From: Alphaproteobacteria bacterium
GTDB lineage: Bacteria > Pseudomonadota > Alphaproteobacteria > MPNO01 > UBA830
Direction: 5' to 3'
Assembly (NCBI GenBank): GCA_965243135.1
Contig: OZ251539.1
Span: forward strand, 4,992,001-5,056,000
Length of the DNA: 64,000 nucleotides
This document shows, one piece after another, positions 3,001-60,989 of this stretch; the stretch's first letter is position 1; every line of letters begins with the position of its first letter. The notes under the pieces were generated by a model. The model was given only the letters and a program-made list of their open reading frames with translations. It made no database searches and was not told the origin of the DNA. Both the position numbers and the translations under genes were made by a program.

Positions 3001-4319
3001 GGCTTGCCCGAGATCGTGCGCGTGTCGGCATTCCAGGAGAGGCCCTGGGGGAGGCTTAGCGTCGTCGCCGCGCCCGGACCGGTCAGCGCGTAGTTTACCG
3101 TGGCGTCGCCGCCGCCGGCCGCCGGCAGCTGGAAGCTGACGACCGTGCCGGCGATCCAGTGCTGGTTCTCCACCTTCGCCGTTCCGAAGGAGGGACGGGA
3201 ATCGTTCACCGAGTGATCGGCGCTGTTCGCGATCGCATGGCTGCCGAGGTCGATTGCGACGTTCGACGCCTTGATGCTGCCGCCGTTCAGCGTCAGCGCG
3301 TCCGCGGGGATGGAGATGCCGTCGCGGTCGACGTCCGCTGCGGTCACCTTGTAGCGGAAGGTCGCCGTCGATCCGCTGTGCGTCCGGTAGACCGCCTGCC
3401 GCGTGGCGTCGCCGATGCCGAGCGCGATCCGCGGCGCGCCCGTCACCGTCACCGGGTAGTTGAACGTGACCTCCACATCGATGTTCTCGCCCGGCGCGTA
3501 GCTGGAGCCGCTGGCCGGAGACGAGACGATGGAAACTCCGCTCACCGCCGGAACCGCCCCGGCGACCGCGACGGTGAACGGCAGCGCGTCCGAAAGCCCC
3601 GTGACCGTCCCGCCTTTGCCGCCGCCGTAGCCGACGTTGAGCGCGTAGGTCGTCTTCGCCATTCCCACCTTCGGCGCGCCGTGGAGGACACGGGTTGCCG
3701 GATCGAAGGAGAGGCCGCCGGGCAGCGCTGGCGTCGCCGCCAGCGCGTAGGACGCGAGAGCGGCGGACGCGCCCTCGCCGCCCGCCGCCGGCAGCGCGAA
3801 GCTGCCGCGCGCGCCGCGCGTGAAGGCGTAGGCAGGCTGCGCCACGCCGTCGAAGGTCGGCCCGCCGCCATCCACTCGATGGTTGGACTGGTCGCCCAGC
3901 GCGTGGCTGCCGAGGCCGAGGGCGGCGTTCACGCTCCCCGCCTTGATGGCGCCCCCGTTGAGCGTCAGCGCGTCCGCGGCGATGGAAACGCCGTCGGCGT
4001 CCCGGTCGCCCGCCAGGATCGCGTAACGGAAGTTAACGTCGGACCCCGACGCCGACCAGAAGGCCGCCTGGCGGGCGCGGGAGCCGACGGTCAGCGCCAG
4101 ACGCGGCTCGCCGGTGACCGTGACGGCTCGACTGAAGGTGACCGTCACGTCGACGTGATCGCCCTGAGCGTAGGGCCGGATCTCTTGCTTTCTCTCCACG
4201 CTCGGACGCGGCGCAATCGAGACGCCGGTCACCGAAGGCGCGCCGCTCTGCGCCGCGTCGGCCAGCGGCGCGCACAGCGTCGCCAGGAGCGGGGCCATAC
4301 GGGCGAGGCGGAAAATCAT
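1..4319 (-). CDS. Giant secreted/surface protein with alternating Ig-like/cadherin-like repeats (partial, runs off the left edge)
   Basis: ATG at 4319 gives MIFRLARMAPLLATLCAPLADAAQ (signal-peptide-like). The same frame reads sensibly at position 3. Two modules repeat: 'VTVTF..AV.VTG.P.LAL.IG...RQAAY...F.Y.V...D.D.DG.SIAA.AL.LNGG' and 'LP.ATGGDG...Y.L...P....FD..TR.LSG.P......Y.L.A.D.DGD...L.F.V.V'. It is absent from the ORF track because no stop lies in the window; 321..3059+ is its antisense shadow. Confidence 0.85.
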   Translation of the reverse strand, partial: MIFRLARMAPLLATLCAPLADAAQSGAPSVTGVSIAPRPSVERKQEIRPYAQGDHVDVTVTFSRAVTVTGEPRLALTVGSRARQAAFWSASGSDVNFRYAILAGDRDADGVSIAADALTLNGGAIKAGSVNAALGLGSHALGDQSNHRVDGGGPTFDGVAQPAYAFTRGARGSFALPAAGGEGASAALASYALAATPALPGGLSFDPATRVLHGAPKVGMAKTTYALNVGYGGGKGGTVTGLSDALPFTVAVAGAVPAVSGVSIVSSPASGSSYAPGENIDVEVTFNYPVTVTGAPRIALGIGDATRQAVYRTHSGSTATFRYKVTAADVDRDGISIPADALTLNGGSIKASNVAIDLGSHAIANSADHSVNDSRPSFGTAKVENQHWIAGTVVSFQLPAAGGGDATVNYALTGPGAATTLSLPQGLSWNADTRTISGKPGAAAAAASYSWAATDGDGDAARLSFDITVAAANAPAPTRLELTETPGFDGDYAAGEVIRATVSFEKNVVVTGAPRLALDIGGAVRQAAYARGLSSPNSLTFQYAVTPSDFDGDGLDIGSGALTLNGGSIVDAADASVAASLGLGGLALRSLGRTVRDAKPSLGTIAARRYLVNLRASDRLPAATGGDGTLSYKLTGPGSAETLSLPDGLSWNASARTLSGAPAAAAAAASYTLTATDGDGDAATQTFALSVVTDPVVSGVAITSSPASGDAYKAGETITVDATFDQTIAVAGAPNLALTIGGEVRQAAGSHVSGQSKITFSYTVATSDRDADGISIAANALALNGGSIRNAKGEDARLGLGAHAVVGAAGHKVSTPPRVVEAKLGASDQACCWNRRPAGWADPRQTATNRFAPAVVTAAVAFDQAVVFDGSGRPSLALAIGGRIRQAAYDAYVSRQMARAFGRDASSVLGFQYTLQPSDFDGDGISVAAGALTLAPGATLRDREGETALLGLGTHAIADDPNHRVRDTAPSFGTAAIQPQHWVAGTAASLTLPAATGDGSVSHALAPTERPSWMAFDSATRVLSGTPPAAAARSSHTWTATDGDGDSTALAFPLTVAAADAPKVSEVKFLSAPAAHRMYAPGSVIEVGIKFDKGVTVTGAPTLALDIGGATRKAGYAAARNGYLVFSYAVQQADYDADGVSVGSGALAPPASGGIFDAADDSIRAALGLGSHAIDDDAGHQVGSPPRVTGVSVHTTPQQAGAYTRGATVTVQVDFDQTVTVTGAPQLALAVGDRIRQARTAASAGNAYVRFSYTVAAGDSDSDGLGVAAGALTLGGGTIRDADGQNAALDLGSHARTAFANAKVDGSRTGLWPDFGTAAGPDLDLTVGTAATQPLPTATGGDAPVRYAVSPALPAGLGVNASTGVLSGTPGVESPRTGYALTATDSNGDAETLAFTIKVAGNRPVASGVAVASAPLSGDTYGASEEILVDVAFERAGTG

Positions 4320-47388: not shown

Positions 47389-48207
47389 ATGCTGGACGTC
47401 AAACCGCTTTCGACCGCGCTCGGCGCCGAGGTCTTCGGCCTGGATCTCGCGGCTCCTCTCGACTCCGCGACGGTCGCCGCGTTGCGCGCGGCGTGGCTGG
47501 ACAACCTTGTCCTGGTCTTCAGAGGCCAGACGATGGAAGAAGGGGATCAGGTCCGTTTCGCGTCGCGCTTCGGAAAGCCGGTCGGCTCCAGATCGGCGCC
47601 GCGGCGCGACGACGGCGACCCCCGCGCAATGCTCATCGGCAACGTGCGCGAGAACGGCGAACCGATCGGCGCGTTGCCGGACGGCGAACTGATGTTCCAC
47701 GCGGATTCGACGTTCCTCGAACGGCCGCTGAAGGGAGCTACGCTCTACGGATGTGAGATCCCGTCCACCGGCGGCGACACGCTGTTCGCCAATATGTACC
47801 TCGCCTACGAGTCCCTGCCGGACGACGTCCGGACCCGGATCGAGCCGCTTCGCGCCCTCCATTGCTACGATTACTCCACGCAGGTCCGAACCGGCGCTTT
47901 CGACCGGAAGACCATGCCCCACGCGACGCACCCCGCCGTCCGCGCGCATCCCGAAACCGGTCGCCGTGCGCTGTACGTCAACCGCCTGATGACGGAAGAG
48001 TTGGTCGGCCTGCCTCCCCAGGAAAGCGCCGCGCTGCTCGATGTCTGCTTCGCCCACGCCGAACGGCCGGAAGGCGTATACCGGCATGTCTGGCGCGAGG
48101 GCGATCTCGTTTTGTGGGACAATCGCTGCACGCAGCATGCGCGCACCGATTTTCCGGCGCGCGAGCGTCGGCTTCTGCGCCGCGTCGGGATCGACTGTCC
48201 GGTCTGA
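47389..48207 (+). CDS. TauD/TfdA family 2OG-dependent dioxygenase
   Basis: FHAD, GGDTLFA, HPAVRAHPETGR and WDNRCTQH.R motifs. Confidence 0.92.
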   Translation: MLDVKPLSTALGAEVFGLDLAAPLDSATVAALRAAWLDNLVLVFRGQTMEEGDQVRFASRFGKPVGSRSAPRRDDGDPRAMLIGNVRENGEPIGALPDGELMFHADSTFLERPLKGATLYGCEIPSTGGDTLFANMYLAYESLPDDVRTRIEPLRALHCYDYSTQVRTGAFDRKTMPHATHPAVRAHPETGRRALYVNRLMTEELVGLPPQESAALLDVCFAHAERPEGVYRHVWREGDLVLWDNRCTQHARTDFPARERRLLRRVGIDCPV

Positions 48208-48463
48208 AACGCCGCTGGTCCGTGCACAGCGAATCGCCCGGGATCCGTCCCGAAGTCTCGTACGAAAGGACACGAGTCGGCCGTTTCGGGCCTTGCGGGC
48301 CGCTCCGCGACGCGAGCCGACGGCGCCTGACGGCCGCTTCGCGGCCGAACCGGCCCTGCCCCGGGCGACGAAATTCTTGCGGAACGCAGTCCTCATCGCG
48401 CATAGTCCGGCCTGTCAGACCGCCTTCCATCTTTCCGGATCCGATGCCGCGCGCAACAGACCG

Positions 48464-50284
48464 ATGAACGGCAACCAGCCCGCACCCGCCAAGAAGCCCG
48501 GTCGCCGCGCCGGGATTTCGCTGACTCTCGCGATGACCGCCAGCGTCGGACTGCTGCTGGCCTTGACCGTGGCCGCCGTTACGGCGTTCGGTCTGTGGAA
48601 CGCCCGGCAGTCGACCGTCGTCCTTCTGAGGGAGCAGGCCCGGCTCGCCGTTTCGACCTCGGTGGCGCGGATCGAACAGCACCTCCGGCCCGCGACCGAT
48701 CAGGTCGCCTTCATCGGCGATCTTCTGGAGTCCGGCGCGCTCGACCCCGCGGATGAAGCGCGGTTCTCCGCCATTCTCACGGGGGCGCTCGCGACCGCGC
48801 CGCAGATAACGACGCTGGTCTTCATCGACCCCGCTCACCGCCTGTTCCGCGTTCAGCGCGTCGAAAGCGCGTTCCGGACATATAAGGCGGACGGGAACAG
48901 GGTTACGCGGCGAGCGATCGCCGCCGTCCAGCGGCCGGGACCGGCCGTCTGGGGGCCGCCGGTCTGGCGCGAAGCGCAGCGGACGACGCTTCTCAACCTG
49001 CGCCGTCCCATCCACCGCGGCGAACGGCTGGTCGGCCTTCTCGTCGCAACGATATCGATCGGAGAACTGTCGGAATATCTGGCGGATCTCGACGGCGAAC
49101 TCGGCGACAACGCCTTCATCCTCTACGACCGGAGGCACGTGCTGGCGCACGCGCTGCTGGCGGACCGGTTCCCGGGCCTTTCGGAAACGAAGCCGCTGCC
49201 GGACGTCGCGAACTTCAGCGATCCCGTGCTGGCGGAAATCTGGCGCGCGCCCCGCGCGCTCGTACAGGGCGACCTGCCCGAAGGAATCGAGAGCTTCTCG
49301 ATCGACGCGTTCAACGATCGGTACATGTTTCTTTATCGGAACGTGACCGGTTTCGGCGACCGGCCATGGCAGGTCGGCGCGTACTTCCGGACCGAGGACC
49401 TGGACGAGTATTTCGACAGGATCAGATGGACTGCGATGGCCGGCGGCAGCGCCTTGATCGTCGCTCTCGCCGCCGCCCTGGTTCTGTCGCGCAGCATCGC
49501 CCGGCCGATCGTCCGGCTCGCGAGAGCGGCGAACAGGGTCGGCCGGCTCGAACTTGCCGACCTGTCCGAGTTGCCGCCGAGCCGGTTCCGCGAACTCAAC
49601 GATCAGGCGAGCGCGTTCAACGCCATGCTGAGCGGGCTGCGCTGGTTCGAAGTCTACGTTCCGAAAGCCCTGGTTCGGCGCTTGATGGAACGCGACGGCG
49701 ACCGGCAACTGGCATCGGCGGAACGCGAGGTCACGGTGATGTTCACCGATATCGCCGGTTTCACGAGCATCGCGGAAGGGACGGACGCCGAAACGCTCGC
49801 CGGATTTCTCAACGATCATTTCGCGGTGATCGCCGGCGCCGTCGAGGCTGCGGGCGGGACGGTCGACAAGTTCATCGGCGACGCCGTCATGGCGTTCTGG
49901 GGAGCGCCCGAAGACCAGCCCGACCACGCCGAGCGGGCGTGCCGCGCCGCGCTGGCGATCCGGAACGCTATCGAAACCGACAACGAACGGCGGTGGACAG
50001 GCGGCGAGACGCGGGTGCGCATGCGCATCGGTTTACATACCGGCCGCGCGGTGGTCGGCAACATCGGTGCACCCGGCCGGATGAACTACACGATCGTGGG
50101 CGATACGGTGAACGTCGCCCAGCGGCTCGAACAACTCGCAAAGGGTACGTCGGACGGCGACGTCGGCATTCTCGTCAGCCAGGCGACCGCCGACAGGCTG
50201 GGCGAGGCTTTCTCCCTCGAGCCGGCGGGCGAACATCAGGTTCCCGGGCGCAACCGGCCGATCGCGGCGTTCCGGCTGGCCTGA
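48464..50284 (+). CDS. Membrane adenylate/guanylate cyclase (TM-Cache-TM-HAMP-cyclase)
   Basis: Two TM segments and a HAMP region, then MFTDIAGFT, DKFIGDAVMA, RIGLHTG and GDTVNVAQRLE. Confidence 0.92.
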   Translation: MNGNQPAPAKKPGRRAGISLTLAMTASVGLLLALTVAAVTAFGLWNARQSTVVLLREQARLAVSTSVARIEQHLRPATDQVAFIGDLLESGALDPADEARFSAILTGALATAPQITTLVFIDPAHRLFRVQRVESAFRTYKADGNRVTRRAIAAVQRPGPAVWGPPVWREAQRTTLLNLRRPIHRGERLVGLLVATISIGELSEYLADLDGELGDNAFILYDRRHVLAHALLADRFPGLSETKPLPDVANFSDPVLAEIWRAPRALVQGDLPEGIESFSIDAFNDRYMFLYRNVTGFGDRPWQVGAYFRTEDLDEYFDRIRWTAMAGGSALIVALAAALVLSRSIARPIVRLARAANRVGRLELADLSELPPSRFRELNDQASAFNAMLSGLRWFEVYVPKALVRRLMERDGDRQLASAEREVTVMFTDIAGFTSIAEGTDAETLAGFLNDHFAVIAGAVEAAGGTVDKFIGDAVMAFWGAPEDQPDHAERACRAALAIRNAIETDNERRWTGGETRVRMRIGLHTGRAVVGNIGAPGRMNYTIVGDTVNVAQRLEQLAKGTSDGDVGILVSQATADRLGEAFSLEPAGEHQVPGRNRPIAAFRLA

Positions 50285-50511
50285 CCTCCGCCCGGCGTTG
50301 TTGCCGCGAAGACGCCGGGCCGCGCCCGCGGGGGAGACCGCCGCTGCGTCGCCGGAGGCAGGCATGACGCGGCAACCGCCGGGCGGCTCCGTCGGCGACG
50401 AGCGCATTCGTGCGGAGGAAGGCGGCGCGTTGTATATTCCGCCCTCATGGAAAATCCTGGCGCGGACGCGATTGCCGGAATCGCCGCCGCACGCGGACGA
50501 AACGACCGGAC

Positions 50512-51225
50512 ATGATTTGCTCGCGCATCCGCCGCCGCATCGACGACAGGCTTGCCGAAATCGAGCGCGACGAGTCCGTGCGGCTTCCGCGCGCAGTGGA
50601 GTCGGGCAGCCGCGCTTGGGGATTCCCGTCGCCCGACAGCGACTACGACGTGCGCTTTCTTTATGTGCGGCCGCGCGACTGGCATCTTGCGCTCGACAAG
50701 CGTCGCGACGTACATCCGGTCGAGGATCCGCTCGACATCAACGGCATGGCTCTGCGATTGCTTCTCAGGGCCACCTCTCGGAATGGCTGGCGTCGCCTTA
50801 TCGGGAGGACGAGACCTGCGCGCGAAGGCTGCTCGCCGCCCGCACCCGGTTCCGCCGTTCGGCGCGCTACCATTACCTGCCGACGCTCGTCCTACCGGAA
50901 GGAATTGGCCGGACGCGAAACCATTCGTCCGAAGAAATACTTCTACCCGCTCCGTCCGGCATTGGCGTTGCGGTGGCTGCGCAACCGCGCGGCCATGCCG
51001 CCGATGGATCTGCCGACCTTGATGGCCGGACTCGGCCGCGAACTTCGCGAAGCCATCGACGAATTGATCGCCCGCAAGGCGAAACGGAGCGAAACGGGCG
51101 CTCGCGTCGGCGTGCGGTTCGAAGAACTCGCCGCAGCCGAGCGCGGCGGGGAGCCTGCCGGCGTCGGCGATCCCGCGCCGCTGAACGACGCCAACGCTGC
51201 GTTTCGCGACATCGTCGGCCTCTAG
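50512..51225 (+). pseudogene. Pol-beta superfamily nucleotidyltransferase (YcgL-like), internally frameshifted
   Basis: VESGSRAWGFPSPDSDYDVRF and KKYFY.LRP.LA are in frame. The conserved middle (EWLASP.YRE, YHYL) lies in another frame. Confidence 0.75.
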
Positions 51226-51334: not shown

Positions 51335-53575
51335 GTGAAGGGCGTTGCCGGTCCCGTCGTCAAGGATCTCGTCCTGATCGGCGGCGGCCACAGCCATGTC
51401 GCCGTGCTTCGGAGTTTCGGCATGTCTTCCCTGCCCGGCGTGCGTCTGACGCTCATCTGCCGCGACGCGCATACGCCTTATTCAGGGATGCTGCCGGGCT
51501 ACGTCGCCGGTCATTACGACTACGACGAAGCGCATATCGATCTCGGCGCGTTGTCGCGCTTCGCCGGCGCCCGTTTCTTTCGCGCCGCGGCGACGGGGAT
51601 CGATCTTGGACGGAAGCGGGTGATCTGCGACGGCCGGCCGCCGGTGCCGTTCGATATCCTTTCCATCAACACGGGATCTTCGCCGGGCGCGGTTCCGGGC
51701 GCCGCGGGAGCGGCGATACCGATCAAGCCCATCGATACCTTCCTCGACGGTTGGCAGGCGCTCCGCGAGCGGGCGGCGAGCGGGCCGCTTCGCATCGCCG
51801 TAGTGGGCGCGGGGGCGGGCGGCGTCGAAATCCTCCTCGCTGTCCGGCACCGCCTGGCCGAAACGCGCGCGGCCGCGGGACGCTCGGCCGACGACATCGC
51901 GTTCCGGCTGTTCGGCGATTCCGACGAGCTCCTGCCCACCCACAGCGCATCGATGCGCCGGACCTTTCGCAACTTCCTGCGCCGATGCGGCGTCGCGGCC
52001 CATCTTGGCCATCCGGTCGTCGAAGTTTCGCCCGGCAAGTTGCGCGACGCGACCGGCGCGGCGTTCGAAGCCGACGAGATCATTTGGGCGACCGGCGCCA
52101 GCGCGCCGGAATGGCCGGCGAAGTCGGGGCTTGCGGTCGACGGGCGAGGCTTCGTCAGGGTCAAGGATACGCTGCAGTCGGTTTCTCATCCGGACGTATT
52201 CGCAGCGGGCGACATAGCGTCCATGGACGATCACCCGCGCCCCAAGTCCGGAGTGTTCGCGGTGCGCCAGGGGAAACCGCTCGCCCACAACCTGCGGCAC
52301 CGGCTGCTCGGCAGGCGCCTGCGGCGGTACCGGCCGCAGTCGAATTTCCTGAGCCTGATTTCCGTCGGCGAAAAACGCGCGATCGCGTCCTACGGACCGT
52401 TGTCGTTCGGAGGGGCGGCCGTATGGAAGTGGAAAGACTGGATCGACCGGCGTTTCATGGTCAAATACAACGATCCGCCTTTCGAGGAAGAGGCCGGCTT
52501 CCCGCCGGAAATCGACGGACCCGACGCTCTCGACGCGGTCTCCGACGACGCCATGCGTTGCGGCGGTTGCGGCGGAAAGATCGGCGCGACCATTCTCGAA
52601 CGCGCTCTCGGCAACCTTTCGACCGTGCAGCGCGAGGAGGTCGTGGTCGGCCTGCGCGAGCCGGACGACGCGGCGGTCGTGGCGCCGCCGGCCGGCAAGG
52701 TCATGGTCCACACCGTGGATTCCTTTCGCGCCATGGTCGACGATCCCTACGCGTTCGGGAAAATCGCCGCGAACCACAGTCTGGGCGACATCTACGCCAT
52801 GGGCGCGACGCCGCAGACCGCGCTGGCGATCGCCAATCTGCCTTACGGCGCCGCATCCAAGGTCGAGGACACGCTGACCCAGATGATGTCGGGCGCCGTC
52901 GAGATCCTGAACGACGCCGGCTGCGTCCTCGTGGGCGGACACACCGCCGAGGGCGCGGAGCTGTCGCTCGGCTTCGCGATCAACGGCACGGTCGACAGGG
53001 AAAGAGTCATGCGCAAGGGCGGCCTTCGTCCGGGCGACGCGCTACTGATCACCAAGCCGGTCGGCACGGGCACGCTCTTCGCCGCGGACATGAGGTGCCG
53101 GGCCAAGGGACGATGGATCGCCGCCGCGCTCTCTCACATGGCGCAATCGAACCGGGAAGCGGCCGAGTGCCTGTTCGAACACGGCGCCACCGCGGTCACG
53201 GACGTCACCGGGTTCGGGCTGATCGGCCATCTGATGGAAATGCTGCGGTCGTCGGGCCTGGAGGCGACGATCAGCCTCGGCTCCGTCCCCGTAATGGACG
53301 GCGCCGAAGAAACGGTCGCGGCGGGAATGCTTTCGTCGCTGCAACCGCAGAATGCGCGGCTGCGGGACGCGGTCCGCGGGACGGCGGTCGCCCACCCCCG
53401 ATTCCCGCTCCTGTTCGACCCGCAGACGGCGGGCGGACTGCTGGCCGGCGTGCCGCCGGACCGGACCGCGGACTGCGTCGCGGCGCTGCGGGACCGCGGC
53501 TACGCGCGCGCTTCGATCATCGGCGACGTCGGAAAACCGTCGGGCCGTCCGGAGCCGATCGCCGTCGAACCGTGA
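51335..53575 (+). CDS. selD: Selenide, water dikinase fused to an N-terminal FAD-dependent oxidoreductase domain
   Basis: GGGHSH, YSGMLPG, PKSGVFAVRQG; then MRCGGCGGK, DDAA, NHSLGDIYAMG, TDVTGFGLIGHL and DPQTAGGLL. Confidence 0.92.
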   Translation: MKGVAGPVVKDLVLIGGGHSHVAVLRSFGMSSLPGVRLTLICRDAHTPYSGMLPGYVAGHYDYDEAHIDLGALSRFAGARFFRAAATGIDLGRKRVICDGRPPVPFDILSINTGSSPGAVPGAAGAAIPIKPIDTFLDGWQALRERAASGPLRIAVVGAGAGGVEILLAVRHRLAETRAAAGRSADDIAFRLFGDSDELLPTHSASMRRTFRNFLRRCGVAAHLGHPVVEVSPGKLRDATGAAFEADEIIWATGASAPEWPAKSGLAVDGRGFVRVKDTLQSVSHPDVFAAGDIASMDDHPRPKSGVFAVRQGKPLAHNLRHRLLGRRLRRYRPQSNFLSLISVGEKRAIASYGPLSFGGAAVWKWKDWIDRRFMVKYNDPPFEEEAGFPPEIDGPDALDAVSDDAMRCGGCGGKIGATILERALGNLSTVQREEVVVGLREPDDAAVVAPPAGKVMVHTVDSFRAMVDDPYAFGKIAANHSLGDIYAMGATPQTALAIANLPYGAASKVEDTLTQMMSGAVEILNDAGCVLVGGHTAEGAELSLGFAINGTVDRERVMRKGGLRPGDALLITKPVGTGTLFAADMRCRAKGRWIAAALSHMAQSNREAAECLFEHGATAVTDVTGFGLIGHLMEMLRSSGLEATISLGSVPVMDGAEETVAAGMLSSLQPQNARLRDAVRGTAVAHPRFPLLFDPQTAGGLLAGVPPDRTADCVAALRDRGYARASIIGDVGKPSGRPEPIAVEP

Positions 53576-53645
53576 AGCTCCATGCCTTGACGGCGACGCG
53601 GAGCGTGGGGCAGGTTCCGGGCGCTGCAGCAAGGAGCGAACCGTC

Positions 53646-54947
53646 ATGCGCGGATGGGTGCAGGAAGATTACGGACAACTGGTCGAACCCGGCCGGGTTC
53701 ACCGCCGGGTCTACACGGATCCCGACATCTTCGAGATGGAGATGGAGCGCATCTTCGGTCGCGCATGGATCTTCGTCGGCCACGACAGCATGATCCCCGA
53801 ACCGGGCGACTACGTAACCGCGGAAATCGGTCGGCAGCCGGTTATCCTGGTCCGCAACAAGGACGGCATGCCGCGGGTGCTGCTGAACCGCTGCGCCCAT
53901 CGAGGCGCCAAGGTCTGCAACGAGCTCCGGGGCAACGCGCGGCAATTCACCTGCCTGTATCACGGCTGGAGCTACGACACCGACGGCAGGCTCGTCGGCG
54001 TGACCATGCCGGAAGGAAGCGCGGGGGATTTCAAGCCCAACCGGTTCGGCCTCGCCCAGGCTCCGGGAGTCGGCCATTATCGCGGCTTCATCTTCGCCAG
54101 CCTCGCGCCCAAAGGATCCGGGTTCGACGAGTTTCTCGGATTGATGAAAGCCAATATCGACGATCTCGTCGACCGGGCGCCCGACGGCGAAATCCTGCTC
54201 GACGCAGGAAGGCATCGTTACAGCTATCGCGGCAACTGGAAGCTGCAGATCGAGAACGTTCTCGACTCCTATCACGTGCCTTTCAGCCACGCATCGACCG
54301 TCAACAGCAAAGGCGAGCAGTTCTCCCGGCGCGAGGGCGACGCGAAGGGCGCCGCCGTGATCGACCGGACGAAGGACAAGACCGCGGATTCCTGGAAGGG
54401 ACGGCGCTCCTACGCCGTCAGCTTCGGACACGGCTGGACCAGCAAGACCGACCTCGACGACAAGGGCCGGTCGAGCCCCGCCTACGACGCCTACAAGGCG
54501 GCGCTCGCCGCCAAGGCCGGGCAAGAACGGATGGAGGAGATCCTCACGCCGCGGTTCCACAACTCGCTGATCTATCCGAGCTGCTCGGTGATGGGCCTCA
54601 ACATCCACGTGCGCGTCGTCAGGCCGGTGGCGGTCGACCGCACCGAGGTGATCGTCTATCCGATCCGCCTCAAGGGCGCGCCGGACGAGATGAATACCCG
54701 AAACGTCCGGCTGCTCAACGTCACGCATTCCGCCGCCTCCTTCGTGCAGACCGACGATCTCGAGTCCTTTCGCCGAACGCAGGAAGGGCTGCGCAGCCTG
54801 CAGTCCGACTGGGTGGACATCTCGCGCGGCCTCGGTGAGGAAAAACAGGATCCGCGATGCAACGCGACCACTGAGTCGGCGATGCACGAAATGACGGTCC
54901 GCGCCCAGTACGCAGCCTGGCGATATTACATGTCGGGCGGCGCTTGA
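53646..54947 (+). CDS. Rieske aromatic ring-hydroxylating dioxygenase alpha subunit
   Basis: NRCAHRG...CLYHGW, NWK...EN..D.YH...H and DD.E motifs. Confidence 0.93.
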   Translation: MRGWVQEDYGQLVEPGRVHRRVYTDPDIFEMEMERIFGRAWIFVGHDSMIPEPGDYVTAEIGRQPVILVRNKDGMPRVLLNRCAHRGAKVCNELRGNARQFTCLYHGWSYDTDGRLVGVTMPEGSAGDFKPNRFGLAQAPGVGHYRGFIFASLAPKGSGFDEFLGLMKANIDDLVDRAPDGEILLDAGRHRYSYRGNWKLQIENVLDSYHVPFSHASTVNSKGEQFSRREGDAKGAAVIDRTKDKTADSWKGRRSYAVSFGHGWTSKTDLDDKGRSSPAYDAYKAALAAKAGQERMEEILTPRFHNSLIYPSCSVMGLNIHVRVVRPVAVDRTEVIVYPIRLKGAPDEMNTRNVRLLNVTHSAASFVQTDDLESFRRTQEGLRSLQSDWVDISRGLGEEKQDPRCNATTESAMHEMTVRAQYAAWRYYMSGGA

Positions 54948-55459
54948 TGGACGTTTTCGCTCTCTCCGACGGTTCGGGGAGCGTTCCGGGCGTCGATCGG
55001 GAGCCGTTCGAGCTGTTTCTGATTCACGAGGCGCGGCTTCTGGACGACCGGCGGTTCGAAGACTGGATGGCGCTGTTTACCGAGGACGGGCTGTATTGGG
55101 TGCCGGCCTCGCCCGACCAGGCGGATCCGCATGGCAGCGCCTCGCTGTTCTTCGACGACCGGGAATTGATGAAGACGCGCATCGAACGCCTCCGGCATCC
55201 TCTGATCCACGTCCAGACTCCGCCGTCCCGCACCAATCACATGTTGGGCAATATCGTGGTCGAAGAGGCGACACCGGACGGGTATCTGGTCAGTTCTTCC
55301 GTATGGGTGGCCGAATACAGGCTGGATGCGCAACGCGTCTTTGCCGGGCGCCAGTTCCACCGCCTGCGGGAGGACGGGGAAGGTTTCAGGATCGCTCTCA
55401 AGCGCGTCCACCTCGTGAACTGCGATTCGGCCTTCGAGGCGCTGGCCGTTCCGATATAG
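54947..55459 (+). CDS. Ring-hydroxylating dioxygenase beta subunit
   Basis: EARLLDDRRF..W..LF, YWVP, Q.PPSRT.H and K.V.LVNCD motifs. Confidence 0.92.
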   Translation: MDVFALSDGSGSVPGVDREPFELFLIHEARLLDDRRFEDWMALFTEDGLYWVPASPDQADPHGSASLFFDDRELMKTRIERLRHPLIHVQTPPSRTNHMLGNIVVEEATPDGYLVSSSVWVAEYRLDAQRVFAGRQFHRLREDGEGFRIALKRVHLVNCDSAFEALAVPI

Positions 55460-55727
55460 CTTGCTGCGGGCAGCTATCGTGCGCGCGGCGCGGTGCGGAA
55501 ATCGGCGGTCACACTGGACTTATGCAAGAGCATCCAGGCCACGCGACCGGGCTGGCGCTTCTTTCCGTCACCAGTCAGCGCGGCTCGGTCAAGCTTGTGA
55601 TCGCTCGGATAGCGTGCGCATCCTGGATCGCACGCCAGGCTTTCGCCGACGACGTGCCGTTTCCGCAAGGGCTTCGTCGCTACGAACGATTCCAGCGGCG
55701 TCGGTCCAAGCAGGGGTGGTTTCCCGT

Positions 55728-56213
55728 TCATTGGCTCAATGTCTTCCGCAAGTCCTTCATGAGCAAGAACAGGTGATGGGGAACCGTGGGACTCGGCTCG
55801 AATTCCAAGGCTTCGTACCATGCCCGCGCCTCTTCGTCCTTGGCATGGACGAGGAGCGACGCCGACGATGTCGGCGGCCGTGGCGGTTCTGAGCAGAGCA
55901 TCCTCGACGAGCGCCTTGCCCAAGCCGCGCCCTTGACAGGTTCGGTCGATCGCGAGACGAGCGAGGGGCAACACCGGAACCGCATGCTTGGCCAACCCTT
56001 TGCCGATAGGCGCAGAGGCATGCTCCACCGCTCCCGTCGCGAGGCTGTAGTAACCAAGCACTGCGGATTCCCGGCAGACGACATAAGTCCGGGCGCTTTC
56101 GGCCTTCCGACTCGCCAGCGCGAACCGCTTCAGAAAACGGTTGAGCGGTTCCTTCCCGCAATCATCTCGCGTTGCCTCGAGTTTCTCGACCGATCCCCAT
56201 GCTCCGATATCAC
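55728..56213 (-). pseudogene. GNAT acetyltransferase toxin (TacT/AtaT-like), frameshifted
   Basis: Pieces DCGKEPLNRFLKRFA, GYYSLA, LARLAIDR..QGRGLGKAL and LVHAKDEEARAWYE in different frames. Confidence 0.8.
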
Positions 56214-56485
56214 TCCAGTACGCTCTTCTCAGCGAGCAATCGGGCCAAGCGCGGCTTGCCGACGACCGGGCGGTCGAGAATATCCCGGAAGGTTCGCCAC
56301 CGCCGTTCGTCGAGGCGGAACATCCGACGGTCGATCAGGGCGTCCTCGGCAGCGTTGATTCCTGCCTCGAGCAGAAACTCCGCAACGCTCTTGCGCGACG
56401 ATGCCGCAGCTTGCTGCAGCAACGCCTTTGTGCCCGGGGTGGCCCGAACCTCTATGTGCTCCGACTTGTTTTCGGCGATGGCCAC
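56210..56485 (-). CDS. DUF1778 (TacA-like) antitoxin
   Basis: KSEHIEVR.T...K.LLQQAA.....V.EFLL...F.LD...W..F...LD.P; GGAGG RBS before the GTG. Confidence 0.85.
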   Translation of the reverse strand: MAIAENKSEHIEVRATPGTKALLQQAAASSRKSVAEFLLEAGINAAEDALIDRRMFRLDERRWRTFRDILDRPVVGKPRLARLLAEKSVLE

Positions 56486-56636
56486 GAACGTTCCTCCAAT
56501 CGGCTCGGTCGGCATTCTACAATACGGATACTGTACGGACAATAGCTCGTCGACTCGATTTCGATTCACCTTCCTCCTTCCTCTAACCGTTCAGTGTTCG
56601 AATCTGAAACTGACGGCTCGGTACAAAATAATGACT

Positions 56637-57701
56637 TTATTGATCAGTAAGATGTTCTAGATGCAAAACTCTCTCCCTAATTTCAATATTCTCTTGGCGC
56701 AACTTTTCATTTTCTCGTACAAGCTCGTTAATTTTATCATACATTACCTTCGAGGTTGCGTCCATTTTTTCTGTGTTGGTGATTGTTTTTTCTGTAACTA
56801 ACTCTATTTTCTTCCTAATCTCTGGAACTAGGGAATTGTATATTCCAGTTACGTTGCTATAAAATCCTCGAAAAAGAACAAAAACAGCGACTAAAAATGC
56901 CGCTATAGCAACTATACTATATCCTTGAATCTTCTTGACAGTTTTCGCAAATTTCTCCGCCTTTTCCTCAGATTTTCTTGCGCTTTTTTCGGCACTACTT
57001 GCCACTAATGGAATAGAGCTTCGAATTGGGACTTCAGCCTTATTTTCGTCAAACTGTCTGGCGGCCTTATTTATATAGTCACGAATATCGTCCCAAAATT
57101 TCTTGTCTTCTTTATAAAGAGCTTTTTGGCCGAGTTTCCCGGAGCTAGACGTCTTTGTCAATTCTACCCAAATGAGGCCTTCGTTTCTCGGTATAGCGTA
57201 GTCTTCATCCGTTAAATTGTGGAGGGGAATGCATAATTTCCCCCAAAATCCCGGGTCAACTAATGGTCCAGTCCCCAATAAAATACCTCGGTGCACATGC
57301 CGGATTTGAAGATTGAACCTCATCGCAATGAAGTTAGGAAGACGAAAATCTAGATCACATTCTACAAAGACTATAGAATTAGCTTTGACTATGAGATCCT
57401 TATCTCCTAATACTCTTTCTAACTTACCTTTGTCATTATATTTGTAGGCGTGACGGCCGATACGCCCTTCGTAAGATGCCTTCTTTAATCGCGATTTTTC
57501 CCTACCACCACAATAGAATGGTGAAATTGCTCCCGTTTTGTCTACATACTTCATTATTTCATCAGCAGAAAGAAGTGCAGGTTCGACATCCGGAAAAGGA
57601 TCTACTTGACCAGAATTTATAAAATCATTCGCCCGTCGTTCTCCGTCACTCCTGTCCAGTATTTTTTGATCCCTACTATTCTTGGTATTCATATCAGACA
57701 T
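56637..57701 (-). CDS. dCTP deaminase/dUTPase-fold protein with degenerate active site, C-terminal TM helix and coiled coil
   Basis: LLS..EI...G.ISPF, ASYEGRIG, RLP and VDPGF.G.L...HN match the Dcd fold. The RSS motif is replaced by QIR and the catalytic Glu by Pro. TM helix YSIVAIAAFLVAVFVLF. The gene is AT-rich. Confidence 0.75.
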   Translation of the reverse strand: MSDMNTKNSRDQKILDRSDGERRANDFINSGQVDPFPDVEPALLSADEIMKYVDKTGAISPFYCGGREKSRLKKASYEGRIGRHAYKYNDKGKLERVLGDKDLIVKANSIVFVECDLDFRLPNFIAMRFNLQIRHVHRGILLGTGPLVDPGFWGKLCIPLHNLTDEDYAIPRNEGLIWVELTKTSSSGKLGQKALYKEDKKFWDDIRDYINKAARQFDENKAEVPIRSSIPLVASSAEKSARKSEEKAEKFAKTVKKIQGYSIVAIAAFLVAVFVLFRGFYSNVTGIYNSLVPEIRKKIELVTEKTITNTEKMDATSKVMYDKINELVRENEKLRQENIEIRERVLHLEHLTDQ

Positions 57702-58732
57702 ATCTCCGATTCGATGATTCTAGATCCAGAAAATCCGCACCAATCAACTTTTTTACCAATATCTAATTCAATTCGATCAATGAATTTTCTAAGACCGCTG
57801 TTCGGATTCTTAATGTCTTGCTCCACGCCAACATAATCGAGATGATTCAAAACCAGTCGATTCGGCGTGTTGACATCAAGAGCGCGTTTTACGATTTCGG
57901 AATTAAAATAGCCAACCCTGCGCAATTTTCCGGTAACGGTCGTATATTCGCGCAAATCACTTTGGCATTCGATTTTACTGGCGATTTCTTCCCATGTCGT
58001 TTCCTCGGGAAGAGGACCGGAATCCCCGGCAACCCGGATCGGATAAGAGCGAATGACCATTGTGATATCATCGACATCCATGGGGCTCAATCCGGCTTCC
58101 GACAGAGCGCCGGCGGCTGTAGTAGATCGAGAAGTTGCTTTAGGCCAGTAACCGCCTTCGAGCAAAGAAAGCCCGAAACCCTGCGTGCCTTCTATGACGA
58201 CGCGGTTCCCGCTCTCGATTCGCTCGCGAAGATAACTCGATGTATCTTTGACATAACTCTCCAATCGAGCGTGATCTTCTGCAAACGCCGAGCGCAAAGG
58301 GAAATTCGCCGCTTCGCGAGCGACGGAAGCCATGACCGCGGCGCCCACGCCCGATCCGGTGGAGCCGATCGTTTCCGTCAATCCTGCTGCCTTCTCCCAT
58401 TCCCGATGTTCCGCCCTGATGATATGGGCGTAAGCGCTGACATGAATGCGATCCCGCGGATAATCGAGCTTTTCGATCTCGGTCAGCAGCACATCGACAT
58501 CGATATAAGATCCCGCCGGCAGCACCACATCAACATTCCCGTCGACGCAAGCGGCCGGAAGCTGGCGCAAAACGTGCTTCGTTCCCGATCTATCGTAAGC
58601 CGTATGCCCGGAATTAGGCCCCCCGACGCGCACCGCGACAGCCGGGGCTCTTGAGCGCCTCACTATTTCCAAGGCTACCTTTCCCTTGCCCTCCGAGCCG
58701 AACTGACCCCCGATCACGATCGAAACAGGCAT
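57689..58732 (-). CDS. Adenylosuccinate synthetase-like protein, PurZ/PurZ0-type
   Basis: GGQFGSEGKGK, GGPNSGHT, IGSTGSGVG, IEGTQG, PIRVAGDSGP, EYTTVTGKLRRVG and LNHLDY motifs; short, 347 aa. Confidence 0.85.
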   Translation of the reverse strand: MPVSIVIGGQFGSEGKGKVALEIVRRSRAPAVAVRVGGPNSGHTAYDRSGTKHVLRQLPAACVDGNVDVVLPAGSYIDVDVLLTEIEKLDYPRDRIHVSAYAHIIRAEHREWEKAAGLTETIGSTGSGVGAAVMASVAREAANFPLRSAFAEDHARLESYVKDTSSYLRERIESGNRVVIEGTQGFGLSLLEGGYWPKATSRSTTAAGALSEAGLSPMDVDDITMVIRSYPIRVAGDSGPLPEETTWEEIASKIECQSDLREYTTVTGKLRRVGYFNSEIVKRALDVNTPNRLVLNHLDYVGVEQDIKNPNSGLRKFIDRIELDIGKKVDWCGFSGSRIIESEICLI

Positions 58733-60636
58733 GGTTCCGTTCCCTTGTCCTGAATGCGCCCAGCATATCGTTCGATATCCGACATGTCGCCATCATTGAC
58801 GAAAATATCATGCGCAGATGACATCAGCTCGCCGACCCTTCTTTCGACTTCCGCGTTCGATGTCTTGTCGAAGCCGACATCGCCGTCGCGCAGGTCGAAT
58901 CTCATGCGCCGCGTCTTTTCCGGCGCGTCAATGTACACATGAAAAAAGCGAACCCCGAACCGCTCGACCATAAAAGCGTTGTCGTCCGGAAACCGCAAGC
59001 CGTCGACAACGATCTTCTCGGCGGCGCCTGCCAGCTTGATCGTCTGTTCGTTCAACCAACGCTGACGCCCGGAGGCATTGATTTCCTCGCCGAGCGTCTG
59101 CCGATTGGATCGGGTAAGCGGACGATTTTCTGCCTTCAGCATGTCGTCCAGAACCAGACTGAACCGCGTATATGAGAATCCCTTGCGCTCCAGTATGCGT
59201 GCAAGGGTGGTTTTGCCGGCGGCGATAGGTCCGCTGACGCCGACCACTACAGCCGTTGGTTCCCTTTCGAGCCGCGGAATGATGAGGGGCGGTTCTTCTT
59301 CGGTTCCAAGCGCCTCCGACATGCCGGCCATATGAAACGTGCCGACGAGAGCCGACGTGATCGCGTCGAGTTCGTCATGGGTTACCTTCTGTGTTTCGAA
59401 AGCGCCGGTTATTCCGAATTCCCGCAACCCCGCTTTCAGCCACTCCTCTCCGGCGCCTTTGCGCGGAATGCGCATGATGTCCTGGGCAGCGCCGGGATAG
59501 CTTTCGATCACCGGTATGCCGCGTTCGCGGAACGTCCGCGCGAGCCGCATGCCCCTCGCCGTCAACTTCTGCATGCTTTGAATGAGACAGGGATAGACGT
59601 TCACCCCGCGTCGCTTGAGCACGCGTTCGGATTGGCGCATGATTCCAAATTCCGCCCGCCCCGGATCGTCGTCCTCCACCGAAATGCGTCCCGCGGGAAG
59701 ACACAGGGGAGAATCGATCGAGACGATGTGCGGAAGGGCGCGACTCGTCTTTTCGATCAGGTCTTCGTCCGAGGACACCAAGGCCACGCAGGCCTCGCGT
59801 CCGTGAAGCAGACACCAGCCGCTGGGTCGTTCCTCTGCGCCTGTAAGATCGATGCCGACGACCCGCAGATCCGCGAATGCGTCATCGAACAGATCTTTGA
59901 AGTGCGAACGCTTCGCGGTGAACGCGGCGGGCGGCGGCGACGCCTTTGGCAAATTTCTCCAGCCCGAAGGGGCCGACCAATCGACAAAGCATGTATTTTC
60001 AACGAACATATCCGATTGTCCGCCTATGCGGGACACGGCCTCGTCGAAAATCGCCCCCATTGCCGCGATGTCGATTCGATTGTAGTGAATCAGTTTATGT
60101 AATGCGTTCCGATCTCCACGAACGTATTTGTGCCACAACAAAACCGCTTCAGCCCCGTCCATTTCCGGCAGTTCGTCCCGCAAATCGACGCCGATCTCCT
60201 TTTCGATAGCTTTCTGGCCTCCTGTCAGACCAACTCGCCTGCAAAGATACATGAGATCGACATGCGTTTCCGGAAATACGACTTCTGGGTATTCCTTCTT
60301 GATGAATTTTGCGTCGAAGCGGATCCCGTTAAAGGTCACCAGCGCCTTTGCGCGGCTCGCATCTTCATGTAACGGGGTAGGATCTTGTCCTTTGATGATC
60401 GTCTTGGCGGTTCCTTCAAAAGACCATCCGATGACGGTAATTTCGTCGTAGTAATGGCTGAGGCCTGTCGTCTCTATATCCAAGAATAGAACGAGTTCTG
60501 GGAATGAAGCGCAAACGCCGAGCTGACGACGCAACTTCCGTGGGATCGTCTTCTTCCCTTTTCCGGTTTTGCGCTCCGTTATCGGGCTGCGTGAATCTCG
60601 GGGGTCTGCAATTGCGGTGCCGCTCATCCTCTTCAT
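58714..60636 (-). CDS. Fusion of YprB-like (RNase_H_2) DEDD exonuclease, DUF429 RNase H-fold nuclease and P-loop nucleotide kinase
   Basis: Exonuclease: FLDIETTG, TFNG..FD, YNRID. DUF429: GIDL, IDSPL, ESYPG, DELDA. Kinase: GPIAAGKTT, VVDGLR. Confidence 0.85.
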   Translation of the reverse strand: MKRMSGTAIADPRDSRSPITERKTGKGKKTIPRKLRRQLGVCASFPELVLFLDIETTGLSHYYDEITVIGWSFEGTAKTIIKGQDPTPLHEDASRAKALVTFNGIRFDAKFIKKEYPEVVFPETHVDLMYLCRRVGLTGGQKAIEKEIGVDLRDELPEMDGAEAVLLWHKYVRGDRNALHKLIHYNRIDIAAMGAIFDEAVSRIGGQSDMFVENTCFVDWSAPSGWRNLPKASPPPAAFTAKRSHFKDLFDDAFADLRVVGIDLTGAEERPSGWCLLHGREACVALVSSDEDLIEKTSRALPHIVSIDSPLCLPAGRISVEDDDPGRAEFGIMRQSERVLKRRGVNVYPCLIQSMQKLTARGMRLARTFRERGIPVIESYPGAAQDIMRIPRKGAGEEWLKAGLREFGITGAFETQKVTHDELDAITSALVGTFHMAGMSEALGTEEEPPLIIPRLEREPTAVVVGVSGPIAAGKTTLARILERKGFSYTRFSLVLDDMLKAENRPLTRSNRQTLGEEINASGRQRWLNEQTIKLAGAAEKIVVDGLRFPDDNAFMVERFGVRFFHVYIDAPEKTRRMRFDLRDGDVGFDKTSNAEVERRVGELMSSAHDIFVNDGDMSDIERYAGRIQDKGTEPCLFRS

Positions 60637-60989
60637 GCCGTCACCTTCCGAGCGATCCGTGCGCCTGACGGCTTCCGTTCACCGATTTCCTCATTCGCAT
60701 GCCAAGTCTGCTGACAAATCCAGACTCGCCGGAAGATTCCGCCTTGTGCCGACGAACGTCATCAGGCCGCCGACTCGATGCTCCGCCTCGCCCCGGTTGT
60801 CCAGCATGTCATTATTAGCCTTCGCCGTTCCGATGCAAACCGTTTCCGGCCGTTTCCCCTCGGTATCTTGATCCGGGGAACGCCTCGGTCGCCCAGCCTC
60901 TTGCTTCCAGTCTACCAACTGTCGAGAATGACGGGTATGCTTGAACTTGTAAAACGGTATCCACAGCCAGCTTTGAGGAACGACCTACA

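Follow-up and report, generated by a model that had tools for sequence, protein, structure and literature searches.

A PurZ-like synthetase in a mobile three-gene bacterial operon that looks like an undescribed nucleotide-converting anti-phage system

The subject of this work is a three-gene operon, hereafter the cassette, found in an alphaproteobacterial genome (GenBank assembly GCA_965243135.1) that consists of a single 6.10-Mb contig (OZ251539.1). The window, i.e., the whole stretch of DNA that was analyzed, comprises 64,000 nucleotides (nt) and corresponds to contig positions 4992001-5056000; coordinates are given within it unless stated otherwise. The middle gene codes for a short paralogue of adenylosuccinate synthetase (PurA) in which the catalytic Asp is replaced by Ser, as in the phage enzymes PurZ and PurZ0. 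Judged from its sequence, the operon looks like an undescribed nucleotide-converting anti-phage system. Its three genes lie on the same strand and overlap each other:

58714..60636, minus strand: three-domain fusion (exonuclease, DUF429 and kinase) of 640 amino acids (aa), its stop overlapping the start of the PurZ-like gene by 19 nt
57689..58732, minus strand: PurZ-like short adenylosuccinate-synthetase paralogue, 347 aa, ATG start, intact open reading frame (ORF)
56637..57701, minus strand: dUTPase/dCTP-deaminase-fold protein, predicted to be membrane-anchored, 354 aa, its start overlapping the stop of the PurZ-like gene by 13 nt

The PurZ-like protein belongs to the adenylosuccinate-synthetase superfamily (Pfam PF00709, E 2.3e-50), and the following elements were located in its gene:

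58679-58711, minus strand: P-loop GGQFGSEGKGK, aa 8-18
58694-58696, minus strand: codon of Ser13
58601-58621, minus strand: catalytic His motif GPNSGHT
aa 122-126, minus strand: IGSTG
58013-58042, minus strand: RVAGDSGP loop, within PIRVAGDSGP (aa 231-240)
57917-57943, minus strand: TTVTGKLRR, aa 264-272
57836-57847, minus strand: NHLD, aa 296-299

The protein was aligned with the PurA of its own genome, a haloarchaeal PurA, four PurZ and three PurZ0 phage proteins and five relatives from other cassettes. Arg303 of PurA binds aspartate, and the Arg of PurA TVTGRPRR that is its equivalent aligns with Lys269 of the window protein. Ser13 falls on the catalytic Asp of the PurA motif GDEGKG and His43 on the PurA catalytic His, while Asp299, in NHLD, takes the place of the Asp of PurA TKLD, which is kept in PurZ0 and replaced by Asn in PurZ. 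An earlier, sequence-only reading of this DNA had pointed out the Ser in GGQFGSEGKGK, the motifs IGSTG, PIRVAGxSGP, TTVTGKxRR and NHLD, the Lys at the Arg303-equivalent position, the retained guanine-specifying Asp and a length like that of archaeal PurA (347 aa vs. at least 415 aa matched for the canonical PurA of the same genome), and on all these points the alignment agrees with it. PMC12884076 gives Asp13 as 99% conserved in PurA, and PMC8342488 associates Ser at this position with a 2-amino purine substrate, which is deoxyguanosine monophosphate (dGMP) in PurZ.

Among solved structures, the closest was 7vf6 (E 4.9e-51), identified in PMC12884076 as the PurZ0 of Gordonia phage Archimedes. 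It was followed by the Pyrococcus horikoshii PurAs 2d7u and 5k7x (E about 6.5e-46) and by the PurZ of phage phiVC8, 6fm1 (E 5e-32). The 339-aa 2d7u aligns over its full length with the window protein (E 6.5e-46); the archaeal short PurAs (2D7U/5K7X, family NF003295) are of the same length class, carry the same deletions and can be aligned end to end, but the window protein differs from them in having Ser for Asp, in scoring below their cut-off and in being an accessory copy. In fact, it failed every NCBIfam model, with 244.8 bits vs. a cut-off of 368 for archaeal-type PurA (NF003295), 243.4 vs. 300 for PurZ (NF038379), and 197.8 vs. 395.55 and 161.9 vs. 402 for the PurA models TIGR00184 and NF002223, respectively.

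PurZ0 (PDB 7VF6 and the proteins of Gordonia phage Sapo and Arthrobacter phage Cholula) resembles the window protein in several traits: a short PurA fold, the GSE(G/A)KG P-loop with Ser for Asp, the guanine-recognition Asp, a few extra residues, G(D/N)SG, inserted behind RV, and the pairing with a dUTPase-fold enzyme (DutZ in phages, the third gene in the window). However, identity to PurZ0 is about 35-39%, and the window gene is bacterial, found in chromosomes and plasmids without DpoZ or DmtZ, and part of a cassette that adds a nuclease-kinase fusion. PurZ (Vibrio phage phiVC8, cyanophage S-2L and Acinetobacter phages with PurZ-MazZ-DatZ) likewise has Ser for the catalytic Asp and a replaced Arg303 equivalent, and passages of PMC8342488 describe a nucleoside triphosphate (NTP) pyrophosphatase feeding this PurA-like synthetase. 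It is set apart by its GSTGKG P-loop, a longer loop after RVG and Asn or Gln for the retained Asp, as well as by an identity of only about 30-32% and its position in another clade.

Relatives were searched for in 185,579 species genomes, which yielded 286 stretches with a relative; the best 80 of them (43-73% identity over the best-aligned segment) were kept. When the window protein was aligned with 65 family members taken from other genomes, the residues G8-K18, including Ser13, together with H43, R271, R272, N296, H297 and D299 are invariant in all 66 sequences. A regular expression detected the Ser motif in 119 of the 120 closest 90%-identity clusters. At a larger scale, a HMMER scan of 1.84 billion representatives (50% identity) yielded 6157 proteins with E<=0.001, 652 of them reaching E<=1e-30, and the motif pattern applied to the best 150 representatives gave Ser in 112, Gly in three, Leu in one and Asp in one, the 33 that did not match the pattern being in many cases fragments. 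A signature that is invariant or nearly so across relatives cannot be attributed to chance. Judging by these alignments the PurZ-like gene is intact and selectively maintained.

The phylogeny was reconstructed with a quick IQ-TREE search that provides only support from the Shimodaira-Hasegawa-like approximate likelihood ratio test (SH-aLRT). It contained 100 rows, i.e., the window protein, 22 of the 80 genome loci, every second of 126 full-length representatives, nine phage proteins, three plasmid proteins and two PurA outgroups (from the own genome and from Natronorubrum) on which the tree was rooted. All Ser-type sequences fell in one clade (SH-aLRT 99), apart from the long PurAs. Within it, PurZ formed a distinct clade (SH-aLRT 99), PurZ0 another with 13 rows (SH-aLRT 100), and proteins in which a kinase is fused to the PurZ-like domain a third one (SH-aLRT 98). 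The window protein was found in a 40-row cassette group (SH-aLRT 91) inside a 61-row clade (SH-aLRT 94), and the backbone between the PurZ, PurZ0, fusion and cassette groups lacked resolution. The scores of the NCBIfam PurZ model agree with this grouping: phage PurZ (397.2 and 420.8) and PurZ0 (317.9-374.2; 318, 365 and 374 for the three proteins) all pass the cut-off of 300, and four cassette relatives (230.9-253.3) and a kinase fusion (195) fail it, as the window protein does. By tree and profile scores, the protein is thus a member of a large, separate bacterial Ser-type clade that is related to PurZ and PurZ0 and is neither of them. The sequence-only reading had called it a GTP-dependent, PurZ0-like enzyme. 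The GTP donor is still a sensible prediction, given the retained Asp, but the phylogeny with PurA, PurZ and PurZ0 that it had proposed as a check leaves the protein outside the PurZ0 clade.

A single protein of the cassette family had Asp instead of Ser (GGQFGDEGKG). This protein, P0261, comes from a 1,982-nt metagenome contig, and its Asp could be a reversion or a sequencing error. It had been tried as an archaeal PurA outgroup and was discarded, its relatives being cassette-family proteins of Emcibacter, Lacibacter and Thalassolituus.

The genome has a separate canonical purA at contig positions 4593351-4594595 (561.9 bits), whose presence the sequence-only reading had proposed to verify, and also a purB (507.5 bits). 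A canonical purA was present as well in the 20 other carrier genomes tested (19 over the cut-off and one cut by the contig end). The PurZ-like gene is an accessory copy and not the one that serves the purine pathway. The sequence-only reading had stated that a genome with no other purA would speak against it, and this objection therefore falls away.

The upstream gene of the operon codes for a fusion of three domains, all on the minus strand:

about 60040-60489: DEDD 3'-5' exonuclease (PF13482, E 2.5e-30), aa 50-199
about 59302-59874: RNase H-like nuclease DUF429 (weak match), aa about 255-445
about 58741-59259: P-loop nucleoside monophosphate (NMP) kinase-like domain (AAA_18/AAA_33), aa about 460-632

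Matches to RNase_H_2 and AAA_18 were found in all 53 members of the fusion family and to DUF429 in 28 of the 53. Invariant residues are D53, E55, N103, D108, Y185 and D189 in the exonuclease, D263, D308, H420, D421, E422 and D424 in DUF429, and G469, K475, T476, R509, R576 and R579 in the kinase, where D545 and R548 are also kept in at least 90% of the members. In all three domains the presumed catalytic residues are invariant or nearly so. An AF2 model of the fusion (pLDDT, the predicted local distance difference test, 88.9) gave as top fold match the AMP-bound adenylate-kinase-related protein 3lw7 (template-modelling score TMt 0.81), followed by dephospho-CoA and UMP-CMP kinases, PolB exonuclease regions and DEDD nucleases. 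The part of PMC3985635 that deals with DUF429 places it in the RuvC-like branch of the RNase H-like superfamily and predicts nuclease activity for it.

In the product of the third gene, also on the minus strand, we could distinguish:

about 57102-57584: beta-barrel domain, aa about 40-200
57216-57260: motif VDPGFWGKLCIPLHN, in the beta-barrel domain
56859-56921: one hydrophobic helix, aa 261-281, after a coiled coil and before the C-terminal coiled coil

The protein has a weak family match to dCTP deaminase (TIGR02274, E 6e-6). The N-terminal domain of the predicted model (pLDDT 89.2) superposes on dUTPase and dCTP deaminase (Dcd) structures with TMt up to 0.82, and R128, N130, D149, P150, P159, N162 and K183 are invariant in 52 members. 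The C-terminal half is a coiled coil that varies among members, and in those displayed the hydrophobic segment keeps its position. The Asp of motif 3 in phage DutZ is matched by D149, although in a weak profile alignment (hhalign probability 36%), and differently from DutZ the cassette protein is of the Dcd type and membrane-anchored. By its predicted beta-barrel fold and the motif-3 Asp we place the third gene product within the dUTPase superfamily. The catalytic Glu of Dcd is E138 (E. coli numbering), in the xLE motif after IDPG, and the invariant Pro159 (in CIPLHN) presumably sits at that position, to which it was mapped by eye on the Dcd motif. On this by-eye mapping the third gene product would lack the catalytic Glu of a dCTP deaminase. 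A complex prediction of the PurZ-like protein with the N-terminal domain of the dUTPase-fold protein scored 0.00 in a run without controls and weighs neither way.

The three genes travel together. All of them are present in 65 of the 74 loci in which both flanks were available, and they are adjacent and co-oriented in 55 of the 74. These loci belong to hosts as diverse as Alpha- and Gammaproteobacteria, Acidobacteriota, Bacteroidota, Ignavibacteriota, Nitrospirota, NC10, Binatia, Desulfovibrionaceae, Actinomycetota and Dormibacterota. The fusion gene is missing in seven loci with upstream sequence, which represent a two-gene form, and the PurZ-like gene is truncated in two loci of the kept set. 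Fusions are also informative: one representative protein, P0125 (644 aa), joins the PurZ-like domain to a Pfam DCD domain, and in seven proteins (P0208, P0226, P0233, P0242, P0258, P0263 and one from a Burkholderia thailandensis plasmid) a P-loop kinase homologous to the operon kinase domain (32% identity over 130 aa, E 1e-11) is attached to the PurZ-like domain. Since such fusions recur, the synthetase, this kinase family and the dUTPase-fold domain appear to act together repeatedly. Some loci carry further genes after the operon:

29 of the 80 loci (locus L014 8179-8898, L041 8320-9093, L075 8146-8916 and 26 others): a fourth gene, G4a, of about 240-257 aa, 3' of the dUTPase-fold gene (detected with tblastn)
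about 12 of the 80 loci (L066 8263-8862, L073 8164-8724, L082 8208-8801 and about nine others): a gene of about 190 aa similar to deoxynucleoside and dTMP kinases

G4a, which is absent from the window, matched no Pfam or NCBIfam family, and its Atlas neighbors were all unnamed. The kinase-like gene was found in more distant cassettes (Bacteroidota, Desulfovibrionaceae and others), and in a subset of loci there is an accessory gene weakly matching HD 5'-deoxynucleotidase.

The sequence-only reading had overlooked that the PurZ-like gene, far from being an isolated paralogue, is the middle gene of a horizontally acquired operon with two nucleotide-enzyme partners. It had noted that datZ, mazZ, dpoZ and phage genes are lacking nearby, and proposed that a Z-genome is probably not built (Z being 2-aminoadenine). 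For those names it was correct, as we found no HD or MazG genes (DatZ, MazZ) in the operon or its flanks, and a Z-genome is indeed unlikely to be built. However, the absence of helper genes is only nominal, because the operon partner has a dUTPase fold, as DutZ does.

The plasmid of B. thailandensis mentioned above (NZ_CP141811.1, 126172-137197) offers a second kind of mobile Ser-type PurZ module. There, a DUF7002 protein comes after the 571-aa kinase-PurZ-like fusion, and the flanks contain a transposase, a PDDEXK nuclease and an integrase. It resembles the cassette in the Ser-type enzyme, the kinase family and the location in mobile DNA, but the kinase is on the synthetase and not on nucleases, the partner is DUF7002 and not a dUTPase-fold protein, and the clade is a separate one.

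Several observations speak of the mobility of the cassette. The third gene has a guanine plus cytosine (GC) content of 0.36-0.42 and its two partners one of 0.50-0.62, vs. 0.63-0.69 in the flanks, and the PurZ-like gene was found (E<=1e-40) in none of 60 related genomes (four from its own genus, 21 more from its family and another 35 from its order). The nearest neighbor in the tree comes from Bryobacterales (Acidobacteriota; 73% identity) while most of the close relatives are alphaproteobacterial, which indicates horizontal transfer. A two-gene form was found on a conjugative plasmid of Sinorhizobium medicae, near AbiEii and Phd genes. An HD-like ORF beside it was considered as DatZ and discarded, with only a 27-residue match to phiVC8 DatZ (E 0.001 in a single comparison). 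By composition, distribution and phylogeny, the cassette is horizontally acquired and mobile, and we saw no integrase in the window and no phage genes in the cassette flanks. The insertion, which lies between Rieske dioxygenase genes and an ORF starting at 60990 that we take to be glnE, recognized by eye from its sequence, includes more than the operon:

53352-55459: Rieske dioxygenase genes (Ring_hydroxyl_A/B), flank of the insertion
55474-56061, minus strand: GNAT (TacT-like) ORF, weak acetyltransferase hits, beside the TacA-type antitoxin
56210-56569, minus strand: TacA-type antitoxin (PF08681, TacA1, E 2.9e-20), directly downstream of the cassette and in the same insertion
60811..60839, minus strand: TTTGCA-17-AATAAT, resembling a promoter and preceding the first operon gene by about 175 nt, a consensus match only

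Sites of this promoter-like consensus were found eight times in the region, with 3.3 expected. The TacA/GNAT pair is part of the island, and we do not claim that it belongs to the system.

Relatives of the PurZ-like gene are also present in viral contigs (IMG/VR), where 148 were found and 80 kept. The dUTPase-fold partner accompanied none of these 80 and an upstream kinase only one, so that we rejected that the cassette is a phage module. Four annotated viral contigs were phage-like, with genes for HNH, RtcB, Acb1 and dCMP deaminase. Seven contigs (L098-L104), one of them of 312 kb, have the PurZ-like gene in phage-like DNA, with a 5'-3' exonuclease among the neighbors and no MazG-, HD (DatZ)- or dUTPase-type family seen in the scanned ORFs; they may represent undescribed phage uses of the Ser-type clade.

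With these data two simple explanations can be weighed, namely that the protein is an ordinary second adenylosuccinate synthetase of the archaeal type, acting on inosine monophosphate (IMP), or that it is a decaying remnant of a phage Z-cluster. Databases name the protein adenylosuccinate synthetase, and its score with the archaeal PurA model is as high as that with the PurZ model. However, the essential Asp is replaced by an invariant Ser, all PurA cut-offs are missed, and the own genome and the 20 other carriers have a canonical purA. Besides, the gene is intact, belongs to a fixed operon kept across phyla and has no phage genes in its flanks, and the dUTPase-fold partner accompanies none of the 80 kept viral-contig relatives. 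We consider both explanations very improbable.

The interpretation that we favor, to which we give about even chances, is that the cassette is a module for the conversion of guanine into (succino-)2-aminoadenine deoxynucleotides, with a likely anti-phage purpose. The PurZ-like enzyme would condense aspartate with a guanine nucleotide, most likely dGMP, as PurZ and PurZ0 do, giving N6-succino-2-amino-(deoxy)adenylate. A deoxy substrate is hinted at by the short loop insertion in common with PurZ0. The phosphate donor would probably be GTP, because the enzyme keeps the guanine-specifying Asp of PurA and PurZ0, and PurZ0 reportedly uses GTP. Regarding the donors of the phage enzymes, PMC12884076 gives the preference of PurZ0 and PurZ as 'ATP and GTP, respectively'; PMC8342488, which attributes to the Gln/Asn of PurZ the specification of ATP or dATP, and bioRxiv 10.1101/2025.10.22.683976 state the reverse, i.e., PurZ uses ATP/dATP, and are followed here. 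The dUTPase-fold partner would probably act on (d)NTPs as a pyrophosphatase and provide the synthetase with (d)GMP, like DutZ or MazZ, since the dUTPase Asp is kept and a Pro occupies the place of the deaminase Glu. Such a pairing has a precedent because DutZ accompanies PurZ0 in phages: according to PMC12884076, all 98 PurZ0 phage genomes carry this Dut-like enzyme, which makes dGMP and dAMP from triphosphates. The kinase domain would act one step before or after the synthetase, the PurB that the host possesses could convert the product to dZMP, and the two nuclease domains could supply deoxynucleoside monophosphates from DNA or act as effectors. Upon infection, the guanine deoxynucleotide pool would be diverted, leading to its depletion, to poisoned viral DNA synthesis, or to both. 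An anti-phage purpose seems the most likely because the context is accessory, mobile and partly defence-linked. Defensive dCTP deaminases are cytidine-deaminase-type fusions, and together with dGTPases they provide the likeness of a proposed action on the deoxynucleotide pool; the difference is that here the predicted reaction is a guanine-nucleotide conversion by a PurA-family ligase. The kinase domain of the fusion also weakly matches the kinase part of the PADLOC dCTPase model (E 3.6e-6).

How far the defence link goes was assessed with greedily picked flank ORFs of 36 loci, scanned vs. PADLOC, and with purA-centered 13-kb windows of 19 of the same genomes as a control. When a hit had to reach E<=1e-30 and to cover 60% or more of the profile (the strict criterion), it was present in 14 of the 36 cassette loci vs. 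two of the 19 controls (Fisher two-sided p = 0.03). The proteins that passed were type I restriction/methylase subunits (in seven loci), SIR2, RmrAT, Lamassu LmuABC, AbiEi, DrmD and PDC candidates of two kinds, and parts of type I restriction-modification (RM) systems lay beside eight of the 36 cassette loci and none of the 19 controls. One of the two control passes was a real Thoeris, and control windows can hold defence genes, since this complete pair (ThsA and ThsB) is no more than 4 kb away from the canonical purA in one carrier (control window L192, genome G076). We consider that the defence genes in the flanks give moderate support to a defence role.

On the other side of the balance there are a number of points. 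The strict criterion was set post hoc, after the control had been seen, related loci are not independent in the count, and the other control pass was a probable FtsH, a housekeeping AAA protease. Under the raw criterion (any PADLOC hit at E<=1e-10) the figures were 21 of 36 loci vs. 10 of 19 controls (p = 0.78). This criterion was dropped because the control showed no discrimination, generic ATPase and housekeeping hits inflating both counts; they were mostly partial MzaA, ABC-ATPase-like mad3/AriA, and probable FtsH and ThiF-like proteins, and the mad3 hits of two cassette loci (L004 and L005) were of the same generic kind as the control hits. No model of PADLOC-DB 2.0.0 matches the PurZ-like or the dUTPase-fold protein, the fusion having only weak domain-level hits, and in the window the TacAT-type pair is the only defence-like neighbor, the other flanks being metabolic. 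The substrate, sugar specificity and donor have been deduced from motifs, and the Arg303 equivalent is variable in the family (K, Q, N or H), so that the amino-acid substrate could differ. Relatives with 41-47% identity are found in phage-like contigs without the cassette partners, i.e., the clade is not exclusive of the cassette. Finally, a pure pathway model leaves the nuclease domains and the membrane anchor unexplained.

This last point keeps alive a signalling model, in which the PurZ-like enzyme would make a succinylated purine second messenger from an infection metabolite (e.g., dGMP from degraded host DNA). The receptor of this messenger would be the dUTPase-fold domain, the kinase-like part of the fusion, or both, and membrane or nuclease effectors would abort the infection. 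The architecture recalls that of a signal synthase with its effectors, i.e., one small-molecule enzyme, a two-nuclease protein and a nucleotide-binding fold tied to the membrane, so that the nucleases and the anchor, idle in a pure pathway model, would have a job, and the loss of the deaminase Glu in the dUTPase-fold domain (the invariant Pro159) fits too. However, the kinase retains the hallmarks of NMP kinases (Walker A, DGxR and lid arginines), the dUTPase catalytic Asp149 is invariant, and the kinase-PurZ-like fusions suggest consecutive metabolic steps rather than sensing. Overall, we regard signalling as rather unlikely.

The presence of type I RM genes beside eight of the 36 loci would also fit a marking of self-DNA, in which the cassette would supply dZTP, some adenines would be replaced by 2-aminoadenine, and the nucleases would discriminate unmarked DNA. 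PurZ-like chemistry and nucleases are indeed combined in the cassette, and, according to PMC8342488, the S-2L Z-cluster by itself can raise the Z content of E. coli DNA, and dZTP is accepted by most polymerases. But the operon has no dATP-removing enzyme, Z-selective polymerase or base-exchange enzyme, the cassette is sporadic (none of the 60 relatives), and nothing indicates that the nucleases sense base composition. The chances of this explanation appear to us very small.

A last alternative is that the cassette is a nucleotide pathway alien to defence, such as salvage of DNA-derived deoxynucleotides or the synthesis of a purine analogue or secondary metabolite. All its domains act on nucleotides or nucleic acids, the raw defence count equals the control, and PurA paralogues do serve purine-analogue pathways. 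An example is a cluster in the Rhizobium leguminosarum plasmid NZ_CP030762.1 (116688-127614) that contains folE, a short Asp-type PurA paralogue, purB, queE, an IMP-dehydrogenase-like gene, a nitrile hydratase subunit and queC, and which we take to resemble a 7-deazapurine nucleoside pathway of the toyocamycin/sangivamycin type. However, its PurA paralogue is of the Asp type, scores above the cut-off for archaeal PurA (445.5 bits) and does not fall within the Ser clade in our tree, and the cassette has no tailoring, export or regulator genes. Mobility and flanking defence genes fit a conflict system better, and we see a pathway of this sort as unlikely.

Returning to the conversion module that we favor, one version of it would be a mobile three-gene immune module that turns guanine deoxynucleotides into succino-2-aminoadenine or Z nucleotides, starving or poisoning the phage or signalling to the nucleases and the anchored protein. 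This version is, in our opinion, conceivable but doubtful. If true, Z-type nucleotide chemistry would be also a cellular weapon, and the Ser-type PurA clade would belong mainly to bacterial mobile elements, with the phage enzymes as side branches. To our knowledge, PurZ chemistry has so far been treated as a phage speciality for Z-DNA, Z nucleotides being known in nature only from phage genomes. The Ser-type family is large and diverse (the 652 representatives mentioned above), much of it lies in bacterial chromosomes and plasmids, and its genes share fixed operons with those of nucleases, of nucleotide kinases and of proteins with an NTP-pyrophosphatase fold. We did not find the cassette described in the literature on PurZ or adenylosuccinate synthetase and phage defence, nor a PurA-family enzyme in a bacterial defence system. 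In a recent survey (PMC12884076; NAR 2026), at most two PurA homologues were sampled per prokaryotic phylum, and the PurZ group contained only phage sequences and four archaeal ones. A defence role would mean a new enzymatic principle in bacterial immunity, either a ligase that drives the conversion of the dG pool or a signal made of a succinyl-purine, and would open the origin of the phage Z pathway to testing, besides providing new enzymes for Z or succino nucleotides. If the role is not defence, this would still be an uncharacterized and widely transferred deoxynucleotide pathway that databases mislabel as adenylosuccinate synthetase.

Two observations about the surroundings can be added. 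In six Hyphomicrobiales genomes of different genera, a gene for an RlmJ-type rRNA methyltransferase (PF04378) precedes the cassette by about 500 nt on the same strand, with the other flank varying:

about 2750-3680 in each of the loci L008, L017, L023, L026, L035 and L081: RlmJ-type gene

It may be a conserved insertion hotspot or a fourth component. In the window itself, at 48041-51225 (plus strand), a few kb from the cassette and among metabolic genes, there are a gene for RlaP, a nucleotidyltransferase of an RNA-repair pathway, and one for a 747-aa protein with a C-terminal adenylate/guanylate cyclase domain.

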